A DNA stretch of 64,000 nucleotides. Origin: a phage. The translations under genes and the position numbers were made by a program. Positions 3,874 through 59,454 of this stretch are shown piece after piece. Every line of letters begins with the position of its first letter. Positions within the stretch are counted from its first letter, which is position 1. Below the pieces are notes generated by a model that had not been told where the DNA came from, did no database searches, and saw only the letters and a list, made by a program, of their open reading frames with translations. The DNA lies in sequence record PX104380.1. One strand, given 5' to 3'.

Positions 3874-4133
3874 AAAAGATTCCTTTTAATGTATCTTTTA
3901 GACCATTCTATCATATCATCATAATCTAAAAAGTATTCATCAAATTCAGCCATGCAAACAACACCTTGTGCTGCTTTTGATGTGATATAAATTATTCCAA
4001 CATATCTAGAATCTTCTTCGGTATAATCAATATTTGCTATGAATTCATCATTAATGTCAAATGTCGAAAACTTCACTGTATGCATCCTTAATACAAGATA
4101 CAGCCATATCTCGTAATGATTTAGGTGTGTCAT
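3870..4133 (-). CDS. hypothetical protein (46.1-like); start uncertain
   Basis: Minus-strand ORF in the gene 46-47 gap; overlaps next ORF, so true start is probably internal. Confidence 0.45.
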   Translation of the reverse strand: MTHLNHYEIWLYLVLRMHTVKFSTFDINDEFIANIDYTEEDSRYVGIIYITSKAAQGVVCMAEFDEYFLDYDDMIEWSKRYIKRNLL

Positions 4134-4320
4134 TATCTAAAATGTTGAAGTTAAAAGATACAGCCCAGTCAGTGCAGACCGTGACCTTTTTAATACAATT
4201 ATCTTCAACCTCTAGCGGTTCAAACCAATATTCAATAATTTCTTTATGCCCAATATCATCTTTTACTTCGCATTCAAAATGCTGACTCATCATAACATTT
4301 TTAAATTCATCAAAAGTCAT
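4057..4320 (-). CDS. hypothetical protein (46.2-like)
   Basis: Minus-strand ORF directly downstream of gene 47 with 4-nt overlap. Confidence 0.5.
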   Translation of the reverse strand: MTFDEFKNVMMSQHFECEVKDDIGHKEIIEYWFEPLEVEDNCIKKVTVCTDWAVSFNFNILDNDTPKSLRDMAVSCIKDAYSEVFDI

Positions 4321-5336
4321 TGTGTTGCCTCTACATATAACTGATTTGCATATTGAATAAGTGCTTCACGGTCAGAATCAGTGATGTCTGGAATTGCATT
4401 AATGTATTCTTCCATCAACGTCTGAAGCGATTGAACTTCAACTTCTTCACTATCATCTGACTCGACAGAGTTATCAATCTTTGACACAACTCGTAATGAA
4501 TGCACAACTTTTTCTAGTTCAGATTCGAACTTCGTTAGATTTTTGTCTACTTCAGTTACTATAACACGTACTGATAGATTTGTAAAATCTTTATAGTCAA
4601 TTTTTCCTTTAAATGGATAATGAATTCTACGATGCCAGGTAGTATTGTTTGGAATAAATTCCATTCGTTCTGTTTCTGTATCAAACATCCAGAACCCACG
4701 AGGGTCATTCTCGTCACCTGCAGTTAGTGTCCATGGTGTCCCAATATATCTGACATTAGCAGCCTCAGAGATAGTATGGAAGTGACCAGACCACACTTCT
4801 TTATAAGTCTTAAGGAAATCAGGTTCAAGACCATGAGATTTCATTCCTTTATAAAAATAAAATCCGTTCAGTTCCCAGTGACCAACACAAAAAGAAGCAG
4901 ATGAAGTTTTGATGTGCTCAAGAATTTCACCAGTATTTTCTTCACACATCCAAGGAATTAAATCAATTAAACATCCGTCAAAATCTACCGTAGTAGGCTT
5001 ATCATATACTTTAACATTAGGATATTTAGCCAAAAGCTCAGTAGAGGCATTTGGGGTTAAAGTATTTTTAAAGTGCATATCATGGTTTCCTACAACAGTA
5101 TGTAGGGTAATACCGGCATCATCAAGCATTTGAACTATTTCACGAGCGAACTCCATAGTTTTATGCGTGATCGCTTTTCGTACATCAAAAATATCACCAT
5201 ATTGAATCCATACAGTAATTCCATTTTTCTTAGAATATTCTATCGCTTGCTTAATTCCATCAATTTGAATACCGCGAATCCACTCATCATCAGCTTTAAC
5301 GCCTAAATGCCAATCACCTAAATTTAAAATTTTCAT
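4317..5336 (-). CDS. 47: recombination endonuclease subunit gp47 (SbcD/Mre11-like phosphoesterase), 339 aa
   Basis: Calcineurin-like phosphoesterase motifs (DWHLG, GDIFD, GNHD, GHWH); length equals T4 gp47. Confidence 0.95.
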   Translation of the reverse strand: MKILNLGDWHLGVKADDEWIRGIQIDGIKQAIEYSKKNGITVWIQYGDIFDVRKAITHKTMEFAREIVQMLDDAGITLHTVVGNHDMHFKNTLTPNASTELLAKYPNVKVYDKPTTVDFDGCLIDLIPWMCEENTGEILEHIKTSSASFCVGHWELNGFYFYKGMKSHGLEPDFLKTYKEVWSGHFHTISEAANVRYIGTPWTLTAGDENDPRGFWMFDTETERMEFIPNNTTWHRRIHYPFKGKIDYKDFTNLSVRVIVTEVDKNLTKFESELEKVVHSLRVVSKIDNSVESDDSEEVEVQSLQTLMEEYINAIPDITDSDREALIQYANQLYVEATQ

Positions 5337-20720: not shown

Positions 20721-21242
20721 GAGTACCGTCTTTAACCGTTCTTCAAACTTCCGAAGAGTATTCTGGCGTTCAGCTCTTTGCTTTTTGTAAGTTTCAATAC
20801 GCTCTGAAATGAGAGTGTATCGTTCATTTACTGATTCTTTCATAAAATCAGGAATTTCACGAGAAGCTTTAATCTCATCAAATTTATCAATAACAGCTTG
20901 CTCTTCAGCAATTAAGTTATCATACATCAAAATATCTTTCTTGATGAACTCAATATCTTCTTGAGTTACACGAGATAACTTAGATGCTTTATCCTTTTTG
21001 TACTGTTCGTTAGTATCACGAGACCAGTGTAATGTACGATTTTTATTCGTATTTTTGTAAATTTCTACGATACCAATCTCATCAATAATAACGATCCAAT
21101 TCCAACGGGATTTGTAAATTTGTCCTCCATCAACTGTGATTTCACCTCCGATTGAGATGTCATTAAAGAACTTGCTTTGTGCTTCAGATTTAAATTTACC
21201 ATCGTTGTAATTTACCAAGTTGAAAATATCTTTAGCGTTCAT
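20715..21242 (-). CDS. hypothetical protein (175 aa), C-terminal coiled coil
   Basis: Minus-strand ORF with SD GAGGAA; promoter immediately upstream. Confidence 0.55.
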   Translation of the reverse strand: MNAKDIFNLVNYNDGKFKSEAQSKFFNDISIGGEITVDGGQIYKSRWNWIVIIDEIGIVEIYKNTNKNRTLHWSRDTNEQYKKDKASKLSRVTQEDIEFIKKDILMYDNLIAEEQAVIDKFDEIKASREIPDFMKESVNERYTLISERIETYKKQRAERQNTLRKFEERLKTVLA

Positions 21243-21280
21243 TTTCTGTTCCTCTGTAGTTGATAGTTGTATAGTACCAC

Positions 21281-21310
21281 AGAGGAACAGTCTTGTAAAC
21301 CACTAAAAGA
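21281..21310 (-). promoter_or_regulatory. T4 early-type promoter
   Basis: Minus-strand GTTTACAAGACTGTTCCTCTGTGGTACTAT followed by the conserved 22-mer ACAACTATCAACT... Confidence 0.6.
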
Positions 21311-21617
21311 AACTTCTTTCACAATTTTTTCCACTGAACCACGCGCTCACTGCTTTCTTAGTCTCAGGAGCAGTGTTATCCATAAACCATTCAAAGGCAG
21401 CCTTTTTATGATTCTGGAGGGCTTCTCGGGCTTTAATCTGCTCACGGTCTATTAACACTAACATATGAGCCTTTCTTGTCACCAAGGGCTTCTTATGATT
21501 TTTTGAATACTCCCAATCATTTGTCCATCGCATCGTTGTTGCGAACTGAAATACTGCTTCTTTAATTTTAGTTTCGTAAATTTCACGAGCCTTTGAGTAT
21601 AACATCATTACCTCCAT
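21303..21617 (-). CDS. hypothetical protein (104 aa)
   Basis: Minus-strand ORF. Confidence 0.5.
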   Translation of the reverse strand: MEVMMLYSKAREIYETKIKEAVFQFATTMRWTNDWEYSKNHKKPLVTRKAHMLVLIDREQIKAREALQNHKKAAFEWFMDNTAPETKKAVSAWFSGKNCERSFF

Positions 21618-21687
21618 TTACTAGTTTAATTCTAGTCATCTTTTTGATGGCAGTCCATATAATCTATTTCTGAACTGCCTTTTTGTC

Positions 21688-22407
21688 TTAGGATTCTTCT
21701 AAATGTCTTTTCTGAAAAGTTGATACCATACTACGATACGGTTCATTTGGATACCCGTGTTTTATAGCTTCCTTTGTAAATTTTCTCCATCCATATTTAG
21801 TTTCTTTCCAAAGCTCGAATAATTCATCTTCATACTGCCATATAGTTAAATGAGAACGCTTTGCAGCTTTAATTCCATTAATATGCTTTTCTTTTACTAC
21901 AGGATTGCTTAGTTTCTTTTTAATAATATTACTAACTTTTCTAACAAAAACTGGGTCCTTATATCGTTGCGAAGTTTTTATTGAAGTGTTTAATTTAGCT
22001 TCCGGTGTGGATGTGACCTCTTTCATCTTTTTCTTCATATGCTGTATATGATTAGGATTTTTCCATAAATTTATAGAATGCTTTTTGCATTTTATCCTAG
22101 TTTCATCTGCAACCTTTCCTCCTTCACCTCCGTATGACAGGTTAACACAGTTTTTTCCATATTTCAATTTACCTGCCATGATATATAATATTTCAGCTTG
22201 TACCATTTTATCATAATTATCAAAAACTTCTAAAACCGTTTTTGATAATATGTGGTCATTTGACACTTTTACACGTTCTATATAATTTCCACTACCAACA
22301 TACGAATCATTGATGTTATTAGTTATATGTCGACCATAATAGTATTTCTTAATACCTGTCTTTAAATTTAATATTTCAGTTTTATAGATAGTAAAATATT
22401 TTTTCAT
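21688..22407 (-). mobile_element. divergent GIY-YIG-like putative endonuclease (239 aa)
   Basis: IYKTE...KYYYGRHITNNINDSYVGSG parallels KEYIGAHSTDNINDGYMGSG of the ORF at 11264-12094; basic C-terminal half. Confidence 0.4.
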
Positions 22408-23372
22408 TTTAATAATACCGTTTCAGCAATTTCTTCCCAATGATTTTTGTCGGTCATAATAAAGTCAGCAAGATAAAGAGCAGTACGCAGTGAAACATTG
22501 CGTAAACGATTAACATTGACTTTCATCCATGATAATGCTTTATAAGTTTCTTCATCAGAAAGACCGCGCTTTTGCATCATGTCAGTTGAAAGAATAACAT
22601 CTTCAACCCTGACCATAATTTCTTCATTAGTGTGAACACCCAAATCCAAATAAACTGAGCGGGACACTAATGCTTGTAAATGTGGAGCAAGTTTAGTACC
22701 ACGGTCTAATTCGCGGTCAATGTCAACGTTTGTGATAAAAACAATCGTTCCTTTAAATTCAAACTCACGCTCAATGCCTTTTTCTTCTAAGTAAGAAGAT
22801 GCGGTGCTCCAGCAGACTTTACGGGTCTCTCCAGTGTCCAGAGCAGCTTTCAGAAGATTAAGAATGTCCATATCAGAGAAAACATCCACATCATCAATCA
22901 AAAGGACAGAATTCTCTTCACGATTATTCCAAAGCTGTTCATAAAGACCGATACCAGAGATTTTACCATTAATGCTTTTATACTCAATGTATCCAATATC
23001 ATTTGCTTTATTTAAAGCTTTATCTAAAGAATACGTTTTACCAATACCCGCCGCGCCAGAGATAATTAATGAACGAATGTTTCCGTTAATAATACCATTC
23101 GTCATCATTCCCATAACATTAAATCTTTTATTAATGCGGGTTTTCATATCTTCATACGATTCTTTAACTTCTTCAACTTTTACACCATCATATGAAATGT
23201 CTGATTTGTAAACCCAAACACCGCGACGTTTACCGTCAATTTCAACAAAAACTTTACCATCTCCTTGTGCATCTACTGGAGCATTATCAGGGAACCACTC
23301 ACCTAAGAGTTCAAAGGTTCCAGAGATTTCTTTGCCAAAGTAAATACCCTTATTGATAGTTACAGTTTTCAT
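22404..23372 (-). CDS. P-loop AAA+-type ATPase of unknown function (322 aa from SD-supported start MKTVTINKG)
   Basis: Walker A GAAGIGKT, Walker B VLLIDDVD, downstream TN sensor-like residues; own early promoter. Confidence 0.6.
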   Translation of the reverse strand: MKTVTINKGIYFGKEISGTFELLGEWFPDNAPVDAQGDGKVFVEIDGKRRGVWVYKSDISYDGVKVEEVKESYEDMKTRINKRFNVMGMMTNGIINGNIRSLIISGAAGIGKTYSLDKALNKANDIGYIEYKSINGKISGIGLYEQLWNNREENSVLLIDDVDVFSDMDILNLLKAALDTGETRKVCWSTASSYLEEKGIEREFEFKGTIVFITNVDIDRELDRGTKLAPHLQALVSRSVYLDLGVHTNEEIMVRVEDVILSTDMMQKRGLSDEETYKALSWMKVNVNRLRNVSLRTALYLADFIMTDKNHWEEIAETVLLK

Positions 23373-23406
23373 TTTATTCTCCAAATCTGTATCAGTTGAT
23401 AGTTGT

Positions 23407-23436
23407 ATAGTACCATAAAGCTTTATGCTTGTAAAC
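23407..23436 (-). promoter_or_regulatory. T4 early-type promoter
   Basis: Minus-strand GTTTACAAGCATAAAGCTTTATGGTACTAT + conserved 22-mer. Confidence 0.6.
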
Positions 23437-23460
23437 AACTTTGTGAAAAATTTTTGAAAT

Positions 23461-23485
23461 AAAAAAAGGGAGCCCGAAGGCTCCC
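23461..23485 (-). terminator. rho-independent terminator (7-bp G+C stem, UUCG loop, U7)
   Basis: gggagcc-cgaa-ggctccc stem preceded on plus strand by A7. Confidence 0.75.
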
Positions 23486-23487
23486 TA

Positions 23488-24501
23488 TCATTTATAATAA
23501 CTTCGATGGTTTTCAAGATAGACCTTCTCAAGGAAGTCATCCCAGAAACTCATATCTACCTTATCAGGCATACCGTTCTTAGAAGCTTCAGTAGATGCTG
23601 CTTCTACTTGATCAACCACATCTTCCAAAAACTCTTGAACTGTTTTAAATGGATGTTTACCCAGCTTCACGTCGAGAATAAATGGAGCATCTTGAAGTGG
23701 ATAAATTAAGTCGCCAGTTTTGTAAATTTCCAATAGTTGGAGTCCACCACGACAAGCATGACTCAAAGCTTTCCAGTCAATGCCTTCATTGGCTTCGGCT
23801 TTACGAGCACGTTCACCGTATTCAGCATCTAATTTGTTCAGTGACTGCTTAAGCTCAATAAGAGAAAGCGTTGTCTGATATTTACGACCCAACACAGTGT
23901 AGAACGTTTGTGGGCCTGTTTTCTCATGATTATGGAACACCCATTCACAGAATTCGTTTTCTGGAAGACGATGCTTAATATCTTCAATTTTAGTGCGACG
24001 TTGTCCTTGTGTTCCATCTTCTCGGTAGACATTCCGTTGATCAGGAATTTGATTAATTACTTTCAACACATCACGTAATGCAGCTAGACGAGAACCTTTA
24101 ACACCATATTTAGAAGCTTGCTTGCGAACATATCCTAAATAGGATTTCATGTTAGTCGTATAAAAACGAGAACGGTTGTCTTGAATAAACTTCCACACAT
24201 CAGGCAAATCAGATTTAACCACTAGTTCAGGTGGAGTGTGTAGCATATCCAATGCTACAGTTTCACCATCTGCTGCTAATTTAAAGAAATATTTAAGACT
24301 GTATAGTTCATGGTCAATATCATCTTTAGTGTTTTTAGATGATGTGTTGTTAGTGTTTTTACTCATGTGCTCTTTGACATTTCCGATAAGAATATCGCGA
24401 GCAGGAGGAACAAAGATTTCTTTAAAATCTACATCAGATTCTGGAGTAGAAATTCCATAAAGATGACTACCAAAATAGCTTTTCATTACTGTTTTCATCA
24501 T
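23488..24501 (-). CDS. Pol-beta-superfamily nucleotidyltransferase-like protein (337 aa)
   Basis: FGSHLYGISTPESDVDF matches the GS-x(9-10)-DxD minimal NTase motif; large helical C-terminal domain. Confidence 0.55.
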   Translation of the reverse strand: MMKTVMKSYFGSHLYGISTPESDVDFKEIFVPPARDILIGNVKEHMSKNTNNTSSKNTKDDIDHELYSLKYFFKLAADGETVALDMLHTPPELVVKSDLPDVWKFIQDNRSRFYTTNMKSYLGYVRKQASKYGVKGSRLAALRDVLKVINQIPDQRNVYREDGTQGQRRTKIEDIKHRLPENEFCEWVFHNHEKTGPQTFYTVLGRKYQTTLSLIELKQSLNKLDAEYGERARKAEANEGIDWKALSHACRGGLQLLEIYKTGDLIYPLQDAPFILDVKLGKHPFKTVQEFLEDVVDQVEAASTEASKNGMPDKVDMSFWDDFLEKVYLENHRSYYK

Positions 24502-24959
24502 TCAGCCTTATATTCAATAACAGGACATACTTTAGCTTTACGAGCTTTTAAAAATTCAACGATAATCGATTTCTTGGGTTGAATAGGAGGTAAACCTTTA
24601 TTTTTCCTATCAATGTTTTCTACGTGTAAAGCATAATCCTTTTTCCATTTATAATCTTTATATTTTTCACGCAAATGTACAGGAATAACAAATGAACCAA
24701 TAATAAGTAAAACAACCAAAAGCGCAAGTATAAATGCTGATGGAAGCAAAGTCCATAAACTACCAAAAATAAGCCAGCGCTGTAAACTTTCTGCACAAAT
24801 AATTGTCAGCCCTACGAGTATAGCACACCCAAAAATAGAAACGAAAAATGTAGGGATAACAATAGACCAAAAGTATGCACATAGCGTCTTAGGTCGTTGC
24901 CATTCATCGTTAAACAATTTGAATAATTTATAGTGCCAAGAGTTTTCATTAATAATCAT
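24498..24959 (-). CDS. integral membrane protein (153 aa)
   Basis: Three predicted hydrophobic helices. Confidence 0.55.
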   Translation of the reverse strand: MIINENSWHYKLFKLFNDEWQRPKTLCAYFWSIVIPTFFVSIFGCAILVGLTIICAESLQRWLIFGSLWTLLPSAFILALLVVLLIIGSFVIPVHLREKYKDYKWKKDYALHVENIDRKNKGLPPIQPKKSIIVEFLKARKAKVCPVIEYKAE

Positions 24960-24961
24960 AA

Positions 24962-25483
24962 TTATCCTTTCATTGAAGGCGTAACGGTTGTTAAATACTT
25001 AATCATAGCTTCAGCTTCTGATTTTGATAATGAAATTTCTCCATTGTTTTGACGAATAGAAATAAAATCCGGATGACGGTCACCACCAGCTTTTAAAACG
25101 CACATATAAGTATCAACTTCGCCTTCAATATTTGAAATGATTGAAGCAGTTCCACATGAATGCGGTTTTTGATAAATCAATGCAGCTTTTCTTCCGCCAT
25201 TTGACTGTTCATAAACTTTTAATACATCAAACAAATCACTTCTTTTATCAATAGCTAAAATGTTATTTTCATCTTCAATGTTAAATCCTTCGGATACTTC
25301 ATAAAGTGTCACCCATAAATCGCCAATATCAATAACAGCGTTCACTTTTCCATGACTTTCAAGAGCATGACAAATTTTCTTGATTTCGTCATAACCCATT
25401 TTAATAATATCATCTCCTTGAATAAGAAAGATGTCATTTTTAAATTCAACACGAATTAAACCACTTCCACTTGAAATAAACAT
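24962..25483 (-). CDS. hypothetical protein, paralog B of tandem pair (173 aa)
   Basis: C-terminus SEAEAMIKYLTTVTPSM parallels DEAIALKNYLDSVIPTM of the upstream gene. Confidence 0.55.
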   Translation of the reverse strand: MFISSGSGLIRVEFKNDIFLIQGDDIIKMGYDEIKKICHALESHGKVNAVIDIGDLWVTLYEVSEGFNIEDENNILAIDKRSDLFDVLKVYEQSNGGRKAALIYQKPHSCGTASIISNIEGEVDTYMCVLKAGGDRHPDFISIRQNNGEISLSKSEAEAMIKYLTTVTPSMKG

Positions 25484-25489
25484 ATTTCC

Positions 25490-26044
25490 TCACTTTGAAA
25501 TCATAGTTGGAATGACAGAATCAAGATAATTCTTTAGCGCAATAGCTTCGTCTTTGGTAAATGTGACAATATGTGCTCGAGAATCATCATTTTGGCGAAC
25601 AAGTACGACATCGCCATCTTCATAAGAAGTCTTGACATCCAAAGTCGTAGTATAGTTTGCAGCTACTGGATTAATAATGCTAGCACCGCGATCTTTAGCC
25701 CATTGAAGTTTAACCTTTTCGGGTGTTTCGACTGTTTCAGATTCCAAGAATTCTTTCACCTTGGTAACGAATGTTGCCCAATTGTTGATAGAAAGACACA
25801 TAAATTCAGTTTCAATATTACCGCCGTAAAGGCCACGATAAAAACGAACTTGGAGGTCGCCTGTAATATTAGTTACACCGGTAACTCCTGAGGGAGCATA
25901 AGATAAAATCGCAGCCAGTTCCATAGGGAGAATAGTAATACTATCGTCTTCCTGCGTCAGAACGTATACATTATCACGTTTTTCGATAACCAGGTCACCG
26001 AACAAATCAGTTGTTTCAATTACAGCTTTCATATTATTTACCAA
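25490..26044 (-). CDS. hypothetical protein, paralog A of tandem pair (184 aa)
   Basis: See paralog B. Confidence 0.55.
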   Translation of the reverse strand: MVNNMKAVIETTDLFGDLVIEKRDNVYVLTQEDDSITILPMELAAILSYAPSGVTGVTNITGDLQVRFYRGLYGGNIETEFMCLSINNWATFVTKVKEFLESETVETPEKVKLQWAKDRGASIINPVAANYTTTLDVKTSYEDGDVVLVRQNDDSRAHIVTFTKDEAIALKNYLDSVIPTMISK

Positions 26045-26219
26045 TTAAAGTTTCAATATAAGAATCAAGATTTACTTTAGCTTCTTCCATAAGAATTTTG
26101 TATTTAATCTTGTTAGCATGTCCGGAGAAAGCTGATTCATCAATAATTGTTGATGTATGAACAGCTCTACTATACGTCTCAATTAATTCTCTTAATTTAA
26201 AAGCCTGCTCACTTGTCAT
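26034..26219 (-). CDS. small helical protein (61 aa), member of small paralog family
   Basis: SEQAFKLRELI...YIETL pattern shared with several small ORFs. Confidence 0.45.
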   Translation of the reverse strand: MTSEQAFKLRELIETYSRAVHTSTIIDESAFSGHANKIKYKILMEEAKVNLDSYIETLIGK

Positions 26220-26323
26220 TACATACTCCTTTGAATAATATCAATAATGTTATTCACCAGATTATAAGTAAACATTGGGTAATTATATTGAATCATCACA
26301 TACACAACAAACAAAACTTTCAT
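26219..26323 (-). CDS. small hydrophobic peptide (34 aa), TAATG-coupled to downstream gene
   Basis: ATG at 26323 preceded by AAGGAGAAGAGA, about 22 nt downstream of predicted transcription start; not in ORF track because of size. Confidence 0.4.
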   Translation of the reverse strand: MKVLFVVYVMIQYNYPMFTYNLVNNIIDIIQRSM

Positions 26324-26351
26324 TCTCTTCTCCTTGGCAGTTGACAAGATT

Positions 26352-26381
26352 ACTATACCATAACCTTGCCAACTTGTAAAC
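26352..26381 (-). promoter_or_regulatory. T4 early-type promoter heading the operon that ends at the NTase gene
   Basis: Minus-strand GTTTACAAGTTGGCAAGGTTATGGTATAGT. Confidence 0.55.
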
Positions 26382-26546
26382 CATTAAATGACGTTTTCGA
26401 TAAAATTCTGAAGCTTTGTATGAGCATCAACCATGATTTTCATTTCTTCCTTTGCGAAAGCTGTGCCTCTTTCACGAGAAGAACATTCATAGTCAGAAAC
26501 TGCATTAGCATATTCTTCAATTAGCTTCATTAAAAACATCTGCTTT

Positions 26547-26741
26547 TCAGTTTTCATTATTCCACCTAATCATTTCAAGATATTGAACTAACTTAGCTTT
26601 GGATTTATCCAAATCCTTTTTAGCTGTTGCTATACCTTCGTATGAATATCCTTCACAATGCTCAACTGCTAATTGATATGAATCTATTTCAACATCACGT
26701 GCTAATTTAATGATTTTTTCAAACTGTTCGTGTGTTAACAT
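26547..26741 (-). CDS. small helical protein (64 aa), small paralog family
   Basis: THEQFEKIIKLA...VQYLEMI pattern. Confidence 0.45.
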   Translation of the reverse strand: MLTHEQFEKIIKLARDVEIDSYQLAVEHCEGYSYEGIATAKKDLDKSKAKLVQYLEMIRWNNEN

Positions 26742-26743
26742 AA

Positions 26744-26983
26744 TTAAACTCTCGTATTATGATCGATAATTTCATCAAGAAACATATCTAACGCTTCTAT
26801 AGCATTATCCACTTTAGTTTCAAAGTCTTTAATGCCTTTATTCGAAATACCCGATGAATACCAAGCAAAGTCAATCAGCTCTTCATCTGCTTTGCGAATT
26901 GAAGCCACTAATTCCTTGATTTTATCTGCTTGCTCTACGCTAATCATTATTCCACCACATATGACAGAGAGAATATTGCACAC
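26744..26983 (-). CDS. small helical protein (79 aa), small paralog family
   Basis: [12 protein letters not shown]...ALDMFLDEI pattern. Confidence 0.45.
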
Positions 26984-27135
26984 GCCATGTGAGTTGCAAC
27001 TTCATCACACATATTATAACGTTTCTTAAGAAGTTCTACAAGTTCTTCACTAGTAACTTCATCCATGTCGACGAAAAAATCACCATTAATGATGACGTAG
27101 ATATTTCCTTCTTGATTGAGTGCTTCAATTTTCAT
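26947..27135 (-). CDS. hypothetical small protein (62 aa from SD-supported start MKIEALN)
   Basis: Early promoter at 27164-27193 excludes the longer listed start; GAGGAGAACATC precedes ATG. Confidence 0.45.
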
Positions 27136-27163
27136 GATGTTCTCCTCTTTATCCGATGGTTGT

Positions 27164-27193
27164 ATAGTATCACAGCTCAAACGGAAAGTAAAC
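27164..27193 (-). promoter_or_regulatory. T4 early-type promoter
   Basis: Minus-strand GTTTACTTTCCGTTTGAGCTGTGATACTAT. Confidence 0.55.
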
Positions 27194-27203
27194 CGGTAAA
27201 ATG

Positions 27204-27226
27204 AAAAAAGTCTCCCGAAGGAGACT
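27204..27226 (-). terminator. rho-independent terminator (UUCG-loop hairpin + U-run)
   Basis: agtctcc-cgaa-ggagact stem, followed on minus transcript by UUUUUUCAU. Confidence 0.7.
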
Positions 27227-27230
27227 AATG

Positions 27231-27617
27231 TTATTCGAGGGAAAGAAGATACTTACTCTGGTAAAACATTCCAGTAATATCATCTATCGTGCTTTGAATG
27301 GCTGGAGGCATTTCTTTATAAATGCTGTTAGATTGGTCTAGTATGCGATCAATCATTTTAATTGTGTCGGTAGGAAGTTTACTGGCATCTGGAATTGAAG
27401 GCGTGTATTTTCTACCAGAATACCCCAAATATTGCTCACCAAATTTATCAATCAAATCTGGCAATTCGGAGAAAATAAAATCGTATGCTTTGTGTCTAGC
27501 ATAACTTTTAGTTTCAAAATGCGCAGAATGAAAATAAGCTTGTGCAGCCATTAATAAACCTAAGTATTCATCTGCCTTTGAAGGTTTTCCACTTTGTGAA
27601 AAGTCGCTGAATTTCAT
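27231..27617 (-). CDS. hypothetical protein adjacent to rI (128 aa)
   Basis: Minus-strand ORF overlapping rI stop by 4 nt. Confidence 0.55.
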
Positions 27618-27907
27618 TCAGTCTCCAATTTAATGTTCATAATTCTAGCGTATGATTGTGCCATCTCCGCGCCTCGTTCTATACATTCGAAATCAGAAGA
27701 GCACGGGTCATTTTTATAGGTCGTTCTCATAAAACTATAGAACTGTTCAGATGATTCTACGCTTTTATTTTCAAAAAGCATATAAACATGTCTAATACCA
27801 GATTCCATAAATTTATCAAAATGAGGATCGACATTCGCTTCAATTGGTGGAGATAAAGCAAATGACAATCCTAGCATGGCAAATAGTGCCGTTGCTTTTA
27901 AGGCCAT
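27614..27907 (-). CDS. rI: lysis-inhibition protein RI (antiholin), 97 aa
   Basis: MALKATALFAMLGLSFALSPPIEANVDPHFDKFMESG... signal-anchor then periplasmic domain, recognised as T4 RI. Confidence 0.9.
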   Translation of the reverse strand: MALKATALFAMLGLSFALSPPIEANVDPHFDKFMESGIRHVYMLFENKSVESSEQFYSFMRTTYKNDPCSSDFECIERGAEMAQSYARIMNIKLETE

Positions 27908-27919
27908 AAAGGCCTCCTA

Positions 27920-28132
27920 TCATTTTTGTCCTGTATTTACTTTATGCCGATGCACGGCCTTAACTTTATCAAGGTATTTTTCAAAATTTCGCAATCTAGT
28001 ATAGTCTGCCGGAGATTGGTTGAGTGATACTTCTCGACGCAAAGCTGAAATGATATTTCCAACTTCCCTACGAATTTCATCTAATTGAAGCACAGTAAGA
28101 TTGCGAAGTTGCTTTTCAGTTAATTGTAGCAT
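27920..28132 (-). CDS. small helical protein (70 aa)
   Basis: Minus-strand ORF between tk and rI. Confidence 0.5.
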
Positions 28133-28174
28133 ATATACCCCTTTAGTTAGATAAACCTATTTATAACTTTTGCA

Positions 28175-28756
28175 CTAACCGAGCTTTTTAGTTAATTCGT
28201 TCCAGTGTTTTCTACACAAAGAAACATAAATTTCATCACCAATACAGATTTGATTACCTTCTTTAACTGGTGTTCCATCTTCCATTAATCGAGCTGTCAT
28301 AATCGCTTTTTTGCCGCAATGACAAACTGCCTTTAGTTCAATAAGTTTATCTGCAATCGCTAAAAGTTCTTTAGAACCTTCAAACAATTTTCCAGCGAAA
28401 TCAGTCCTTAACCCATAAGCCATAACAGGAACATTATATGTATCAACAATTCGACTCAATTGATGCACTTGTTCAGTTTTTAAAAATTGGGCTTCATCTA
28501 CAAATACGCAATGAATATCTTTTTGTGCTTCAGCCCATTTATAGAACTCGAAAATATCCATATCATCTGTAATAATATTCGCTTCCTGTTTAATTCCAAT
28601 GCGAGAAACAACTTCACAGACAGAATCACGAGTATCAATAGCAGGCTTAAGAACTAATACACTCATTCCACGTTCTTTATAATTATGTGCAGCAGTCAAA
28701 AGAGAAGCAGATTTTCCAGCATTCATTGCTGCATAAGTAAAAATTAAACTCGCCAT
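28175..28756 (-). CDS. tk: thymidine kinase (193 aa)
   Basis: P-loop AAMNAGKS, Walker B VFVDEAQF, C-terminal CHCG...C zinc motif. Confidence 0.9.
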   Translation of the reverse strand: MASLIFTYAAMNAGKSASLLTAAHNYKERGMSVLVLKPAIDTRDSVCEVVSRIGIKQEANIITDDMDIFEFYKWAEAQKDIHCVFVDEAQFLKTEQVHQLSRIVDTYNVPVMAYGLRTDFAGKLFEGSKELLAIADKLIELKAVCHCGKKAIMTARLMEDGTPVKEGNQICIGDEIYVSLCRKHWNELTKKLG

Positions 28757-28757
28757 C

Positions 28758-28946
28758 TTAGTCCTTAGTTAAATTTTCTAAATATGTTTCTAAATCATTT
28801 TCAGCTTTATCGATAGATTTTACTAATTCGTAATATGTTTCGGCATCTCCATATTCAGAAGATATTTCAAAAGACAAATCCTTTTCTAAACTAATAATTT
28901 CACCAACTAAAAATAATATTTCGTTCTTTTGTTCGCGAGTAATCAT
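28758..28946 (-). CDS. small helical protein (62 aa), small paralog family
   Basis: TREQKNEILFLVGEI...YLENL. Confidence 0.45.
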   Translation of the reverse strand: MITREQKNEILFLVGEIISLEKDLSFEISSEYGDAETYYELVKSIDKAENDLETYLENLTKD

Positions 28947-29128
28947 AAGGAATTTATATAATCAATGAGTTCTTGTTCTTTATTATCAAATTCTTTGGAA
29001 AGTTCTTCATATTCATTTGCGCTAAAAGGACCGCATTCATTACAAACTTTTTCCAATTCACTATTTTTATCCATAATTTCGTGGATAAGAGAAAAGAGTT
29101 TGTCTTTTTGTTCTTTGCTTAGGCTCAT
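28943..29128 (-). CDS. small helical protein (61 aa), small paralog family
   Basis: SKEQKDKLFSLIHEI...LIDYINSL. Confidence 0.45.
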   Translation of the reverse strand: MSLSKEQKDKLFSLIHEIMDKNSELEKVCNECGPFSANEYEELSKEFDNKEQELIDYINSL

Positions 29129-57248: not shown

Positions 57249-57907
57249 TGAGTTTACTTAATAATAAAGCGGGAGTTATTTCCCGCTTAGCAGATTTTCT
57301 TGGTTTTAGAACTAAGAAAAATGATATTTCGGTTATGAATAATCAGCCGGTAGGTGCTGTAACAATTTCACAAATAGCAAAAGGTTTTTATGACCCAAAT
57401 GTAGAATCTGCTATCAATGATGTTAGAAATATGGCAGAGCAACAGGTTGGAGCTGTATTAGTTAATATAAGTGGCGTATCTCCTACTGGCGTGCAGCAAA
57501 CAGACTATTGGTCATTTGAAGGAACTGTTACTGATACTTCAGCCAAACCAGGTGACCCAGTTATTGTTAATATGTTTGGCATTCCTGTTAAAGCTACTAA
57601 TGGAATGACTTCAATCGAATTTACCAGTGCCGTTAGAACAGCTCTACAGGAAATGGTTGCAAAATTTATTGCAATTGATTCATTTGAAGACCATCCTACC
57701 ATAGGAAATAAAATACAAGTTAAGTATTTAGATAACCAAGAACATATCTTAGAACAATACTCTGATAAAGGAATTACTTTCAAACAGGAAATAATTTCTC
57801 CTTCTAAACCTGGGTATGGAACTTGGCAATTATTAGGTGCGCAAACTGTTACGCTAGATAGTCACACCCAACCTACAGTATTTTATTATTTTGAGAGAAT
57901 AGCATGA
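57248..57907 (+). CDS. 11: baseplate protein gp11 (short tail fibre attachment), 219 aa
   Basis: From internal Met [20 protein letters not shown], recognised as T4 gp11 N-terminus. Confidence 0.9.
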
Positions 57908-59454
57908 GTAACAATACATATCAGCACGTATCAAATGAATCAAAATACGTTAAATTCGATCCTGCAGGATCGAATTTTCCTGACACTGTCACGACAGTGC
58001 AGTCAGCATTATCAAAAATAAGTAATATCGGCGTAAATGGTATTCCTGATGCAACTATGGAAGTTAAAGGAATAGCAATGATTGCATCGGAGCAAGAGGT
58101 TTTAGATGGAACTAATAATTCTAAAATCGTTACACCAGCTACATTAGCAACAAGATTATTGTATCCAAATGCTACTGAAACTAAATATGGATTAACGCGC
58201 TATTCAACAAATGAAGAAACATTAGAAGGCTCAGATAATAATTCATCAATAACGCCGCAAAAACTGAAATACCATACTGACGATGTATTCCAAAATAGGT
58301 ATTCATCTGAATCATCAAATGGAGTTATTAAAATATCATCTACTCCTGCGGCTTTGGCTGGTATAGATGATACTACAGCGATGACTCCGTTGAAAACCCA
58401 AAAACTCGCAATAAAATTAATTTCGCAAATAGCTCCTTCAGAAGACACAGCATCAGAATCTGTTAGAGGTGTAGTTCAGTTATCAACTGTCGCTCAAACT
58501 CGTCAAGGAACTCTCCGCGAAGGATATGCAATTTCTCCGTATACCTTTATGAATTCTGTTGCAACACAAGAATATAAGGGTGTTATACGTTTAGGAACAC
58601 AATCAGAAATTAACAGTAATTTGGGAGATGTTGCAGTAACAGGTGAAACATTAAATGGTCGAGGAGCTACCGGTTCTATGCGTGGGGTAGTAAAATTAAC
58701 GACGCAAGCCGGTATTGCCCCTGAAGGTGATAGCTCTGGAGCATTAGCATGGAACGCAGATGTAATTAATACTCGCGGTGGACAAACTATTAATGGTTCT
58801 TTAAATTTAGATCATTTAACAGCAAATGGAATTTGGTCGCGCGGCGGAATGTGGAAAAATGGCGATCAACCTGTTGCCACTGAAAGATATGCGTCCGAAA
58901 GGGTTCCAGTTGGAACTATTATGATGTTTGCTGGAGATTCAGCTCCTCCTGGTTGGATTATGTGCCACGGCGGAACCGTGTCAGGAGATCAATATCCTGA
59001 TTATAGAAACACGGTTGGAGCAAGATTTGGTGGTGATTGGAATAACCCTGGCATTCCTGATATGCGAGGTCTTTTCGTTAGAGGAGCTGGCACGGGCGGT
59101 CATATTTTAAATCAACGAGGGCAAGATGGTTACGGGAAGGATAGACTTGGTGTAGGATGTGACGGAATGCATGTTGGCGGTGTTCAAGCACAACAGATGT
59201 CATACCATAAACATGCTGGTGGTTGGGGAGAATACCAAAGACATGAAGCTCCATTTGGCGCGTCCGTTTATCAAGGATATCTTGGAACTAGAAAATATGC
59301 CGACTGGGATAATGCTTCATACTTCACTAATGATGGATTTGAATTAGGTGGACCGAGAGATGCCCTTGGTACACTTAATCGTGAAGGATTAATTGGTTAT
59401 GAAACTAGACCATGGAATATATCATTAAACTATATTATTAAAATTCATTACTAA
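57904..59454 (+). CDS. 12: short tail fibre protein gp12 (516 aa)
   Basis: Gene order; about 11 aa shorter than the T4 length I recall. Confidence 0.85.

Follow-up and report, generated by a model that had tools for sequence, protein, structure and literature searches.

A diverged tandem gene pair of the T4 MobD.1/Y05I family, with a predicted three-repeat, PUR-like layout and a conserved membrane protein partner gene

Two adjoining early-region genes of a T4-like phage, here called copy 1 and copy 2, can be shown by sequence comparison to be diverged tandem paralogues of the T4 MobD.1/Y05I family, since both match the same two Pfam domains and the same PHROG. They lie in a stretch of 64,000 nucleotides from sequence record PX104380.1, which we call the window. 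Our explanation of the pair as a whole, to which we give a probability of about 0.6, is that the two proteins are MobD.1-family paralogues with a PUR-like layout whose third repeats would form dimers, that they belong to a module with a membrane protein, that their N-terminal parts would be ligand-engaging heads, and that the module would have an accessory host-interaction or counter-defence function. The mechanistic side of this reading rests on predicted structure, on analogy and on very consistent synteny. The family is already catalogued in Pfam and in PHROGs, and the pair is labelled "hypothetical" in hundreds of deposited phage genomes; the present analysis adds the three-repeat PUR-like reading, the invariant partner gene, the atypical position of T4 and a natural hybrid gene.

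Organization of the locus

The window is T4-like (Tequatrovirus) DNA of about 34% GC. Its region 24400-26300 matches 509 phage records in a Megablast search, the best of them (EC121, IME340 and RB18, for example) at about 97.7% identity, and gene names were fixed from the annotated regions of EC121, T4 and AR1. The order of genes on the minus strand is tk, rI.1, rI, rI.-1, small ORFs, copy 1, copy 2, the membrane protein gene, nrdC.11 and nrdC.10 (Table 1). Both copies are situated in the tk-to-nrdC early block beside nrdC.11, in synteny with T4, AR1, EC121, IME08 and LF82-8.

Table 1. Features of the MobD.1-family locus, listed in the direction of the minus strand
Feature	Position	Strand	Remarks
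T4-early-type sigma-70 promoter-like site	26352..26381	-	GTTTACA, 17 nt spacer, TG-TATAGT; consensus match
34-aa ORF, counterpart of T4 mobD.2	26219..26323	-	stop overlaps following ATG (TAATG)
61-aa DUF7438 protein	26034..26219	-	Pfam PF24219 E 2.8e-14; phrog_4859
Copy 1, mobD.1 orthologue, 180 aa from ATG	25490..26032	-	N-domain ~25733-26023, C-domain ~25502-25711
Copy 2, 173-aa paralogue (AR1_101 / RB32 type)	24962..25483	-	N-domain ~25199-25480, C-domain ~24971-25180
153-aa two-pass membrane protein	24498..24959	-	phrog_944 "membrane protein"
nrdC.11, 337 aa, RlaP-family (PF10127) Pol-beta nucleotidyltransferase (NTase)	23488..24501	-	Pfam RlaP E 7.7e-12; phrog_388 E 2e-136
Intrinsic-terminator-like hairpin closing the unit	23467..23486	-	8 bp, 6 GC, then T-run

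The initial annotation had drawn attention to the pair as proteins of 184 and 173 aa with parallel C-terminal ends; both ORFs are present on the minus strand where it had placed them, and the C-terminal strings that it quoted are correct. The 184-aa version of copy 1 begins at a TTG (26044) that falls within the 61-aa ORF upstream; a likelier start is the ATG at 26032, the one used in related annotated phages. The spacing of the genes is very tight. One nucleotide separates the 61-aa DUF7438 gene from copy 1, a 6-nt spacer separates copy 1 from copy 2 (TGAGGAAATATG), the stretch between copy 2 and the membrane protein gene is TAATTATG, and the ATG of nrdC.11 overlaps the stop codon of the membrane protein gene (ATGA). 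Copy 1, copy 2, the membrane protein gene and nrdC.11 may thus fairly be described as one tightly coupled transcription unit that is predicted to be translationally coupled, and the earlier statement that the pair lies upstream of a membrane protein gene and an NTase, "inside the NTase operon", is a fair one that follows from gene order and spacing. The promoter-like site was the top score of the scan, with 10/12 matches plus the TG extension. The terminator-like hairpin is a strong one, and an equivalent terminator is annotated after nrdC.11 in phage SV76. The one match in an Rfam scan of 21000-29000, to the L20 leader at the terminator hairpin, fell below threshold (29 bits; gathering score 58.7) and was rejected as chance. 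A second terminator-like hairpin is found at 27226-27209, after rI.-1.

Several smaller ORFs at this locus deserve brief comment. The counterpart of mobD.2 sits within a block that is 93% identical to T4 57817-58888; it has no Pfam match in the window, and the equivalent 34-aa gene of the metagenomic phage L012 carries PF26864 (Phage_T4_Y05J). The 61-aa DUF7438 protein is called a "helicase loader" in some records, which is a mislabel, and T4 lacks a gene for it at the equivalent position. The nrdC.11 gene has 95% DNA identity to its T4 namesake. A plus-strand ORF of 106 aa at 25571-25891, antisense to copy 1, was treated as spurious, since it overlaps a conserved gene under purifying selection.

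The two copies are homologous over their whole length

Pairwise BLASTP aligns copy 1 with copy 2 at 29% identity over 173 columns that span both proteins (E = 5e-9). Smith-Waterman scores were tested against 2000 shuffles, with p values from a Gumbel fit; the full-length proteins score 98 against 30 +/- 5 for the shuffled sequences (z = 13.7, p = 8e-9), and the C-domains alone give z = 10.1. The C-terminal helix is the stretch in which the copies are most alike (45% identity), and the initial annotation, which had suggested a diverged tandem duplication, had left room for a similarity limited to the C-terminal 17 residues. This limit does not hold, because the copies are still significantly similar after removal of about 19-20 C-terminal residues (z = 8.4, p = 1e-5), as are their N-domains alone (z = 6.2, p = 1.6e-4). 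In addition, both copies match two Pfam families well above the gathering scores. PF24449 (T4_y05I_N; gathering score 24.9 bits) is matched by copy 1 with 111.6 bits (E 3e-32) and by copy 2 with 117.9 bits (E 3e-34), over nearly the whole of its 99 positions, and PF24448 (T4_y05I_C; gathering score 27 bits) is matched with 64.3 bits (E 1e-17) and 80.0 bits (E 2e-22), respectively, both copies covering profile positions 1-69 of 69. Both also match phrog_1502 end to end, with E of about 1e-66. The low overall identity and the prominence of the C-terminal helix could be taken to mean that the resemblance is due to chance or composition and confined to a shared C-terminal motif; similarity outside the tail, full-length matches to two independent Pfam HMMs and to one PHROG, and predicted folds that are identical in the two copies mean that this idea can be regarded as already refuted.

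The genes are adjoining, on the same strand and 6 nt apart, and they have significant full-length similarity and the same domain architecture, all as expected of a tandem duplication. In a neighbour-joining tree, however, they are not one another's closest relatives when compared with single-copy outgroup orthologues. Thus homology and tandem arrangement, as originally proposed, stand, and the tree is compatible both with an old duplication followed by acceleration and with a lateral acquisition; we return to this below.

The MobD.1/Y05I family

An exhaustive HMMER search with a profile of both copies found only 24 family representatives at E <= 1e-3 among 1.84 billion representative proteins, and every one that can be traced belongs to a T4-like phage. 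Around half of them consist of the C-domain by itself and are 65-87 aa long; such "minis" (70-87 aa) occur in phages TG1, X20 and VAC36. Conservation within the family is highest in the C-terminal helix and tail, [FL][TS]KxEAxAL..YL..VIP[ST]M, the very stretch in which the parallel between the copies had first been noticed; it is 85-95% identical between mobD.1 alleles that are elsewhere only 41-47% identical. T4 MobD.1 (UniProt Y05I_BPT4) resembles the copies in having the same two Pfam domains and the same flanking genes, and its gene is the positional orthologue of copy 1, to which it is 47% identical. T4 has a single copy without a membrane protein partner, whereas the window has two, and copy 1 of the window is of another, Mosigvirus-like allele class.

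The literature on mobD.1, Y05I and the neighbouring genes yielded no functional study, only a table of homing endonucleases and a genome-reduction paper, and searches of the two copies, the membrane protein, nrdC.11 and nrdC.10 against PADLOC and NCBIfam gave no match. The name "putative transcription factor", which the Y05I family bears in Pfam, is a prediction. The original description of the function as unknown still stands experimentally, and to it can now be added a family curated in Pfam and PHROGs, a predicted fold and a conserved partner gene.

A membrane protein gene is the constant neighbour

A family gene, full-length or mini, is followed at -1 to +9 nt by a homologous membrane protein gene in 11 of 11 loci, that is, in the window and in all ten of the comparators. 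The latter are phages EC121 and AR1 (Tequatrovirus), LF82-8 (Mosigvirus), IME08 (Dhakavirus), TG1 (Tegunavirus), X20 (Winklervirus) and VAC36 (Marfavirus), and three metagenomic lineages (L007, L012 and L013), at least six genera overall. Their membrane proteins match the 153-aa protein of the window with phmmer E values of 5e-9 to 3e-105. This protein has two hydrophobic segments and has homologues in 934 phage records; its conserved termini, presumably cytoplasmic, are an N-terminal SWHxKL...LCxYFW and a C-terminal, Lys/Arg-rich KA[RK]KxKxCPxIE[FY]. The invariant partner provides an experimental handle on the MobD.1 family.

The RlaP NTase is usually found 0-3 genes after the membrane protein gene. 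It is absent from the neighbourhood of the family gene in TG1 and VAC36, so we rejected it as an obligatory partner. Recent work showed that RlaP enzymes extend the 3' ends of damaged RNA by one or two NMPs, and the T4 member is uncharacterised (bioRxiv 10.64898/2025.12.29.696909). Should the link with RlaP prove real, the module may be relevant to the ways in which T-even phages overcome defences that cleave tRNA.

T4 is atypical, and a natural hybrid gene exists

The segment 24503-25464 of the window, which comprises the membrane protein gene and copy 2 from codon 7 on, is missing from T4, where its place is taken by the mobD HNH homing-endonuclease cassette. Right after the mobD.1 stop codon, T4 still has a ribosome binding site, an ATG and the first six codons of copy 2 (MFISSG), identical to those of the window. 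The cassette is present in only 47 records, all >= 99% identical, and so represents a recent and narrow invasion. Evidently T4 is a derived exception in which the mobD cassette replaced copy 2 and the membrane protein gene, and this accounts for its single copy and its lack of a membrane protein partner. Work on T4 only would therefore miss the module. T4 has kept mobD.1 intact without the membrane protein gene, so copy 1, at least, can exist without this partner.

In six metagenomic contigs (three loci examined, L007-L009) the pair is replaced by a single gene (P0011, 179 aa), with the membrane protein gene and the NTase gene kept. In its DNA, nucleotides 1-387 match copy 1 (93% identity to the AR1 allele), whereas nucleotides 379-538 correspond to the equivalent part of copy 2 (97%); the gene is the product of an in-register unequal crossover close to the start of the C-domain. 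The existence of such a natural in-register hybrid shows that the modules of the two copies are interchangeable.

Predicted fold

AlphaFold2 models were made for copy 1 with a 46-sequence alignment (mean pLDDT 84.7, C-domain about 80) and for copy 2 with a 6-sequence alignment, in which the N-domain is modelled well (pLDDT about 90) and the C-domain poorly (40-66). Both copies have the same predicted fold, with three successive beta-beta-beta-beta-alpha repeats in each model. Profile-profile comparison also reveals a sequence relation between repeats 1 and 3, in the beta3-beta4-helix part (hhalign probability 86%, E 5e-6). Single-sequence tests for internal repeats were not significant, and a sequence relation of repeat 2 to repeats 1 and 3 was not found in the profile-profile or the single-sequence tests.

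Proteins of the PC4-like fold class share nucleic-acid-binding surfaces, and have been divided into "type I" domains, in which two repeats of one chain pair, and "type II" domains, in which a single repeat folds by dimerising; Pur-alpha is the only protein known to have both types (PMC7549692). At the level of predicted structure, repeats 1 and 2 of the MobD.1 proteins, which correspond to the Pfam N-domain, make up an intramolecular type I domain of PC4/PUR-like form, with Pur-alpha repeats I-II as its closest solved relative, and repeat 3, which corresponds to the Pfam C-domain, forms a lone type II-like half-domain. The three-repeat reading would thus explain both the division of the family into N and C domains in Pfam and the existence of stand-alone C-domain genes; the latter, consisting of repeat 3 only, resemble the single-repeat type II members of the PC4-like class that dimerise to fold. 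Pur-alpha (PDB 3k44, 5fgo and 8chw) has the same layout as that predicted for MobD.1, with repeats 1-2 in one domain and repeat 3 as a half-domain.

This likeness does not extend to sequence. Structural alignment with Pur-alpha gives 5-12% identity and there is no detectable sequence similarity; Pfam PurA has zero matches to either copy at E <= 0.1, no PUR chain in the PDB is reached by the family profile at E <= 10, and no sequence link to Whirly or PC4 proteins was found. The best match of the PDB profile searches, made with the 6- and the 46-sequence alignments, was TRAP1 at E 0.53, which is noise, and a fold search of BFVD gave only family members above noise. The PUR likeness of the modelled MobD.1 proteins is therefore a description of layout and not of family membership.

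The repeat topology of the models is held in common with Whirly, MRP1-MRP2, PC4-Sub1, bacterial Pur-alpha (Borrelia Bpur) and YdbC (PMC7549692), although neither the KGKAAL-type motif nor the tetrameric whirligig assembly of the Whirly proteins could be recognized in the copies. An SsgA-like protein (PDB 3cm1) is also a structural match, but it is an actinobacterial cell division protein from another context, without a third repeat or sequence similarity. Among phage proteins, ChmC of the nucleus-forming jumbo phages can be likened to MobD.1 from its description in the literature as a member of the same broad fold class; it is a Whirly-domain protein, experimentally RNA-binding, and differs from MobD.1 in phage family and in architecture (PMC11077065).

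Charge and possible function

The family is uniformly acidic. Full-length members have pI values of 4.1-5.8, and the N-domains have pI 4.1-5.2 and net charges of -5 to -16. Conserved in the N-domain are E21, Q31, D33, D34, E42, N76 and E80; a conserved basic patch is absent. Pur-alpha binds ssDNA and RNA, whereas the phage proteins are acidic and linked to a membrane protein, and this acidity makes classical nucleic acid binding doubtful. The copies might nonetheless be canonical ssDNA- or RNA-binding regulators that use their beta-sheet faces, like Pur-alpha, Whirly and MRP1/2, and perhaps present damaged tRNA or RNA ends to the RlaP NTase. Their top structural neighbours are all ssDNA or RNA binders of a class with shared binding surfaces, the family gene is usually 1-4 genes upstream of an NTase gene whose relatives act on damaged RNA, and the C-domains of the Tequatrovirus proteins are near neutral and keep K110, R150 and K164. 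Against this, the acidity holds for the whole family, proteins of the same fold with no nucleic acid role (SsgA and the chaperones of the type VII secretion system, T7SS) are among the matches, and the invariant genomic partner is the membrane protein and not the NTase; we consider canonical nucleic acid binding unlikely. The acidity of the N-domain argues against such binding without positively establishing that the domain binds protein. We prefer to rank an acidic, protein-binding or mimic head above a canonical nucleic acid binder, because the family is acidic and because the same-fold proteins SsgA and the T7SS chaperones make protein contacts.

With the acidic head as the preferred reading, the module might work as follows. 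As Pur-alpha repeat III and the minis suggest by analogy, repeat 3 would find in another repeat 3 the partner that completes its fold. The active form would then be a dimer, a homodimer where the phage has a single copy and perhaps a copy 1/copy 2 heterodimer in the phage of the window. Repeat 3 may be the module that works with the membrane protein, whose cytoplasmic tail is Lys/Arg-rich, because it is the sole part of the family protein that all lineages retain and because its coding sequence invariably lies directly upstream of the membrane protein gene. The acidic, fast-evolving N-domain would be a variable head that engages a ligand, for which we prefer a basic protein, or a nucleic-acid-binding protein met by charge mimicry, over naked nucleic acid; an RNA tied to the adjoining RNA 3'-end-repair enzyme is a possible alternative. 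The function of the module would be an accessory one in host interaction or counter-defence, dispensable on laboratory hosts. That it is accessory is suggested by the loss of copy 2 and the membrane protein gene in T4-type phages and by the survival of T4 without the nrdC.11-mobD.3 block, mutants lacking which are viable (PMC9825161).

A more elaborate proposal, which is highly speculative and as a whole improbable, is that MobD.1 would be a second, phage instance of the combination of intra- and intermolecular PC4-like domains found in Pur-alpha, put to use as an acidic dimeric adaptor. Its repeat 3 would both dimerise and dock on the membrane protein, the head would capture a host factor, or damaged RNA for RlaP, and the Tequatrovirus pair would be a two-headed heterodimer, the whole serving as a membrane-anchored counter-defence, with anticodon nucleases that excise a nucleotide (RloC, for instance) as a conceivable target.

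Evolution of the pair

The widespread state of the locus is a single family copy followed by the membrane protein gene and then the NTase gene; about 434 records, of Tequatrovirus type, contain the tandem pair. Copy 1 of the window is 75% identical to its Mosigvirus orthologue and 47% identical to that of T4, and its flanks are 93-95% identical to T4, so that 25625-26207 is clearly recognizable as a mosaic segment. In the neighbour-joining tree (midpoint-rooted), the clade of 173-aa proteins lies outside the mobD.1 orthologues as a whole, those of Mosigvirus and Dhakavirus among them. Because of this position, copy 2 could derive from an old duplication, from fast divergence of one copy, or from lateral acquisition of a distant homologue. 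In the last case copy 2 (or copy 1) would be a xenologue, recombined in from a distant T4-like phage beside a resident homologue. The visibly mosaic state of the locus would suit such an event, as would the distance of the 173-aa clade, which is only 23-30% identical to any mobD.1 orthologue of the three genera compared, the combination in AR1 of a copy 1 of the T4 type and a copy 2 that is 99% identical, and the presence of a copy-2-type gene alone in L012. On the other hand, no single-copy donor lineage with a copy-2-type gene was found outside Tequatrovirus-like contigs, a midpoint-rooted neighbour-joining tree of short, fast-evolving proteins cannot tell an old, accelerated duplication from a transfer, and both models yield the same present-day state. 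We hold the transfer only tentatively, as a somewhat unlikely origin.

One might also suppose that one copy is redundant and decaying and that the pair has no joint function, in view of the dispensability of the block in T4, the loss of copy 2 in T4-type phages, the collapse of the pair into one gene in the phages with the hybrid, and the T2-type phage SV76, in which both copies are frameshifted. The SV76 frameshifts could be real decay or could be sequencing errors, and the condition of the genes elsewhere makes redundancy very improbable. Both copies can be shown to be intact, with substitution patterns indicative of purifying selection: copy 2 is intact in the roughly 434 genomes, with 92-99% amino acid identity and dN/dS of 0.16-0.17, and copy 1, which is hypervariable, with at least three allele classes, 45-99% identity and dN/dS of 0.2-0.55, is intact, at full coverage, in 722 of the 732 records.

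Replacement, fusion and possible exchange at mobD.1 and its 173-aa paralogue

Alignment of window positions 24503-25489 with T4 (NC_000866, 56429-57282; our locus L002) shows that in T4 a mobD HNH homing-endonuclease cassette occupies the place of the 173-aa paralogue of mobD.1, from codon 7 onward, and of the adjoining gene for a two-pass membrane protein. Directly after the mobD.1 stop codon T4 retains the ribosome-binding site, the ATG and the six opening codons (MFISSG) of the lost 173-aa copy. This type of mobD cassette is present in only 47 phage records, each at least 99% identical. A different arrangement is found in metagenomic T4-like contigs (L007, positions 4001-4540, and likewise L008 and L009), where the tandem pair is replaced by a single 179-aa hybrid gene, an in-register fusion of 387 nt of mobD.1 at the 5' end with 160 nt of the 173-aa copy at the 3' end. 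Directly upstream, these loci carry a Phage_tudor (PF24144) gene of 88 aa, as do the other single-copy metagenomic loci (L012 and L013).

The mobD.1 gene itself lies partly in a mosaic hypervariable segment (window 25625-26207), which spans its N-terminal three quarters and a 61-aa DUF7438 gene; blastn finds no alignment of this segment with T4, while the sequence on either side matches T4 at 93-95% identity. With the orthologue of the Mosigvirus LF82-8 the mobD.1 allele of the window shares 75% identity, but with T4 mobD.1 only 47%, and this difference suggests an exchange of the allele between genera. In the T2-type phage SV76 (L006, 3437-4519) frameshifts disrupt mobD.1 as well as the 173-aa-type copy, and the membrane protein gene and the nucleotidyltransferase gene nrdC.11 are undamaged; in the T2 record the membrane protein gene is in two pieces. 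These breaks could be either true decay or sequencing errors.

DUF7189 (PF23819) weakly matches the first predicted repeat of the 173-aa copy (residues 16-37, window 25373-25438; E 5e-4, under the gathering score), and in metagenomic locus L013 small DUF7189 genes (989-1189 and 1543-1707) lie shortly upstream of the MobD.1-family gene; this domain could be a related fragment that consists of a single repeat. The 128-aa metagenomic protein P0035, whose N-terminus is HTH-like and whose last 25 residues match the 173-aa copy's tail exactly, is probably a chimera created by assembly or gene calling.

Neighboring genes

Six DUF7438 paralogues of 57-67 aa lie within about 3 kb either side of tk/rI, a tandem array larger than the mobD.1-family pair. 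Some records wrongly label its members "helicase loader" or "MobD molybdopterin" proteins.

Coordinates of the DUF7438 and endonuclease-like genes
Gene	Position	Strand	Length	Family
Homing-endonuclease-like	21688-22407	-	239 aa	phrog_314
DUF7438	26034-26219	-		PF24219
DUF7438	26384-26557	-		PF24219
DUF7438	26547-26741	-		PF24219
DUF7438	26744-26947	-		PF24219
DUF7438	28758-28946	-		PF24219
DUF7438	28943-29128	-		PF24219

The nrdC.10 reading frame as called (22404-23540, minus strand, 378 aa) starts too far upstream: its match to the PHROG profile begins at residue 57, and the surplus 5' stretch contains the terminator hairpin of nrdC.11 (23467-23486). The real gene is likely 22404-23372 (minus strand, 322 aa), its product likely an AAA/STAND-like ATPase. 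A sub-threshold Rfam L20_leader match over this hairpin (23454-23615, minus strand; E 0.014) was taken as chance, its 29.2 bits comparing with a gathering score of 58.7. The nrdC.10 stop is overlapped by the endonuclease-like gene, whose protein has no Pfam match and an N-terminus that resembles GIY-YIG. T4 lacks a gene at this place, and AR1, another Tequatrovirus, has a "segE"-like gene there; the 239-aa gene is a predicted further free-standing endonuclease insertion in the block.
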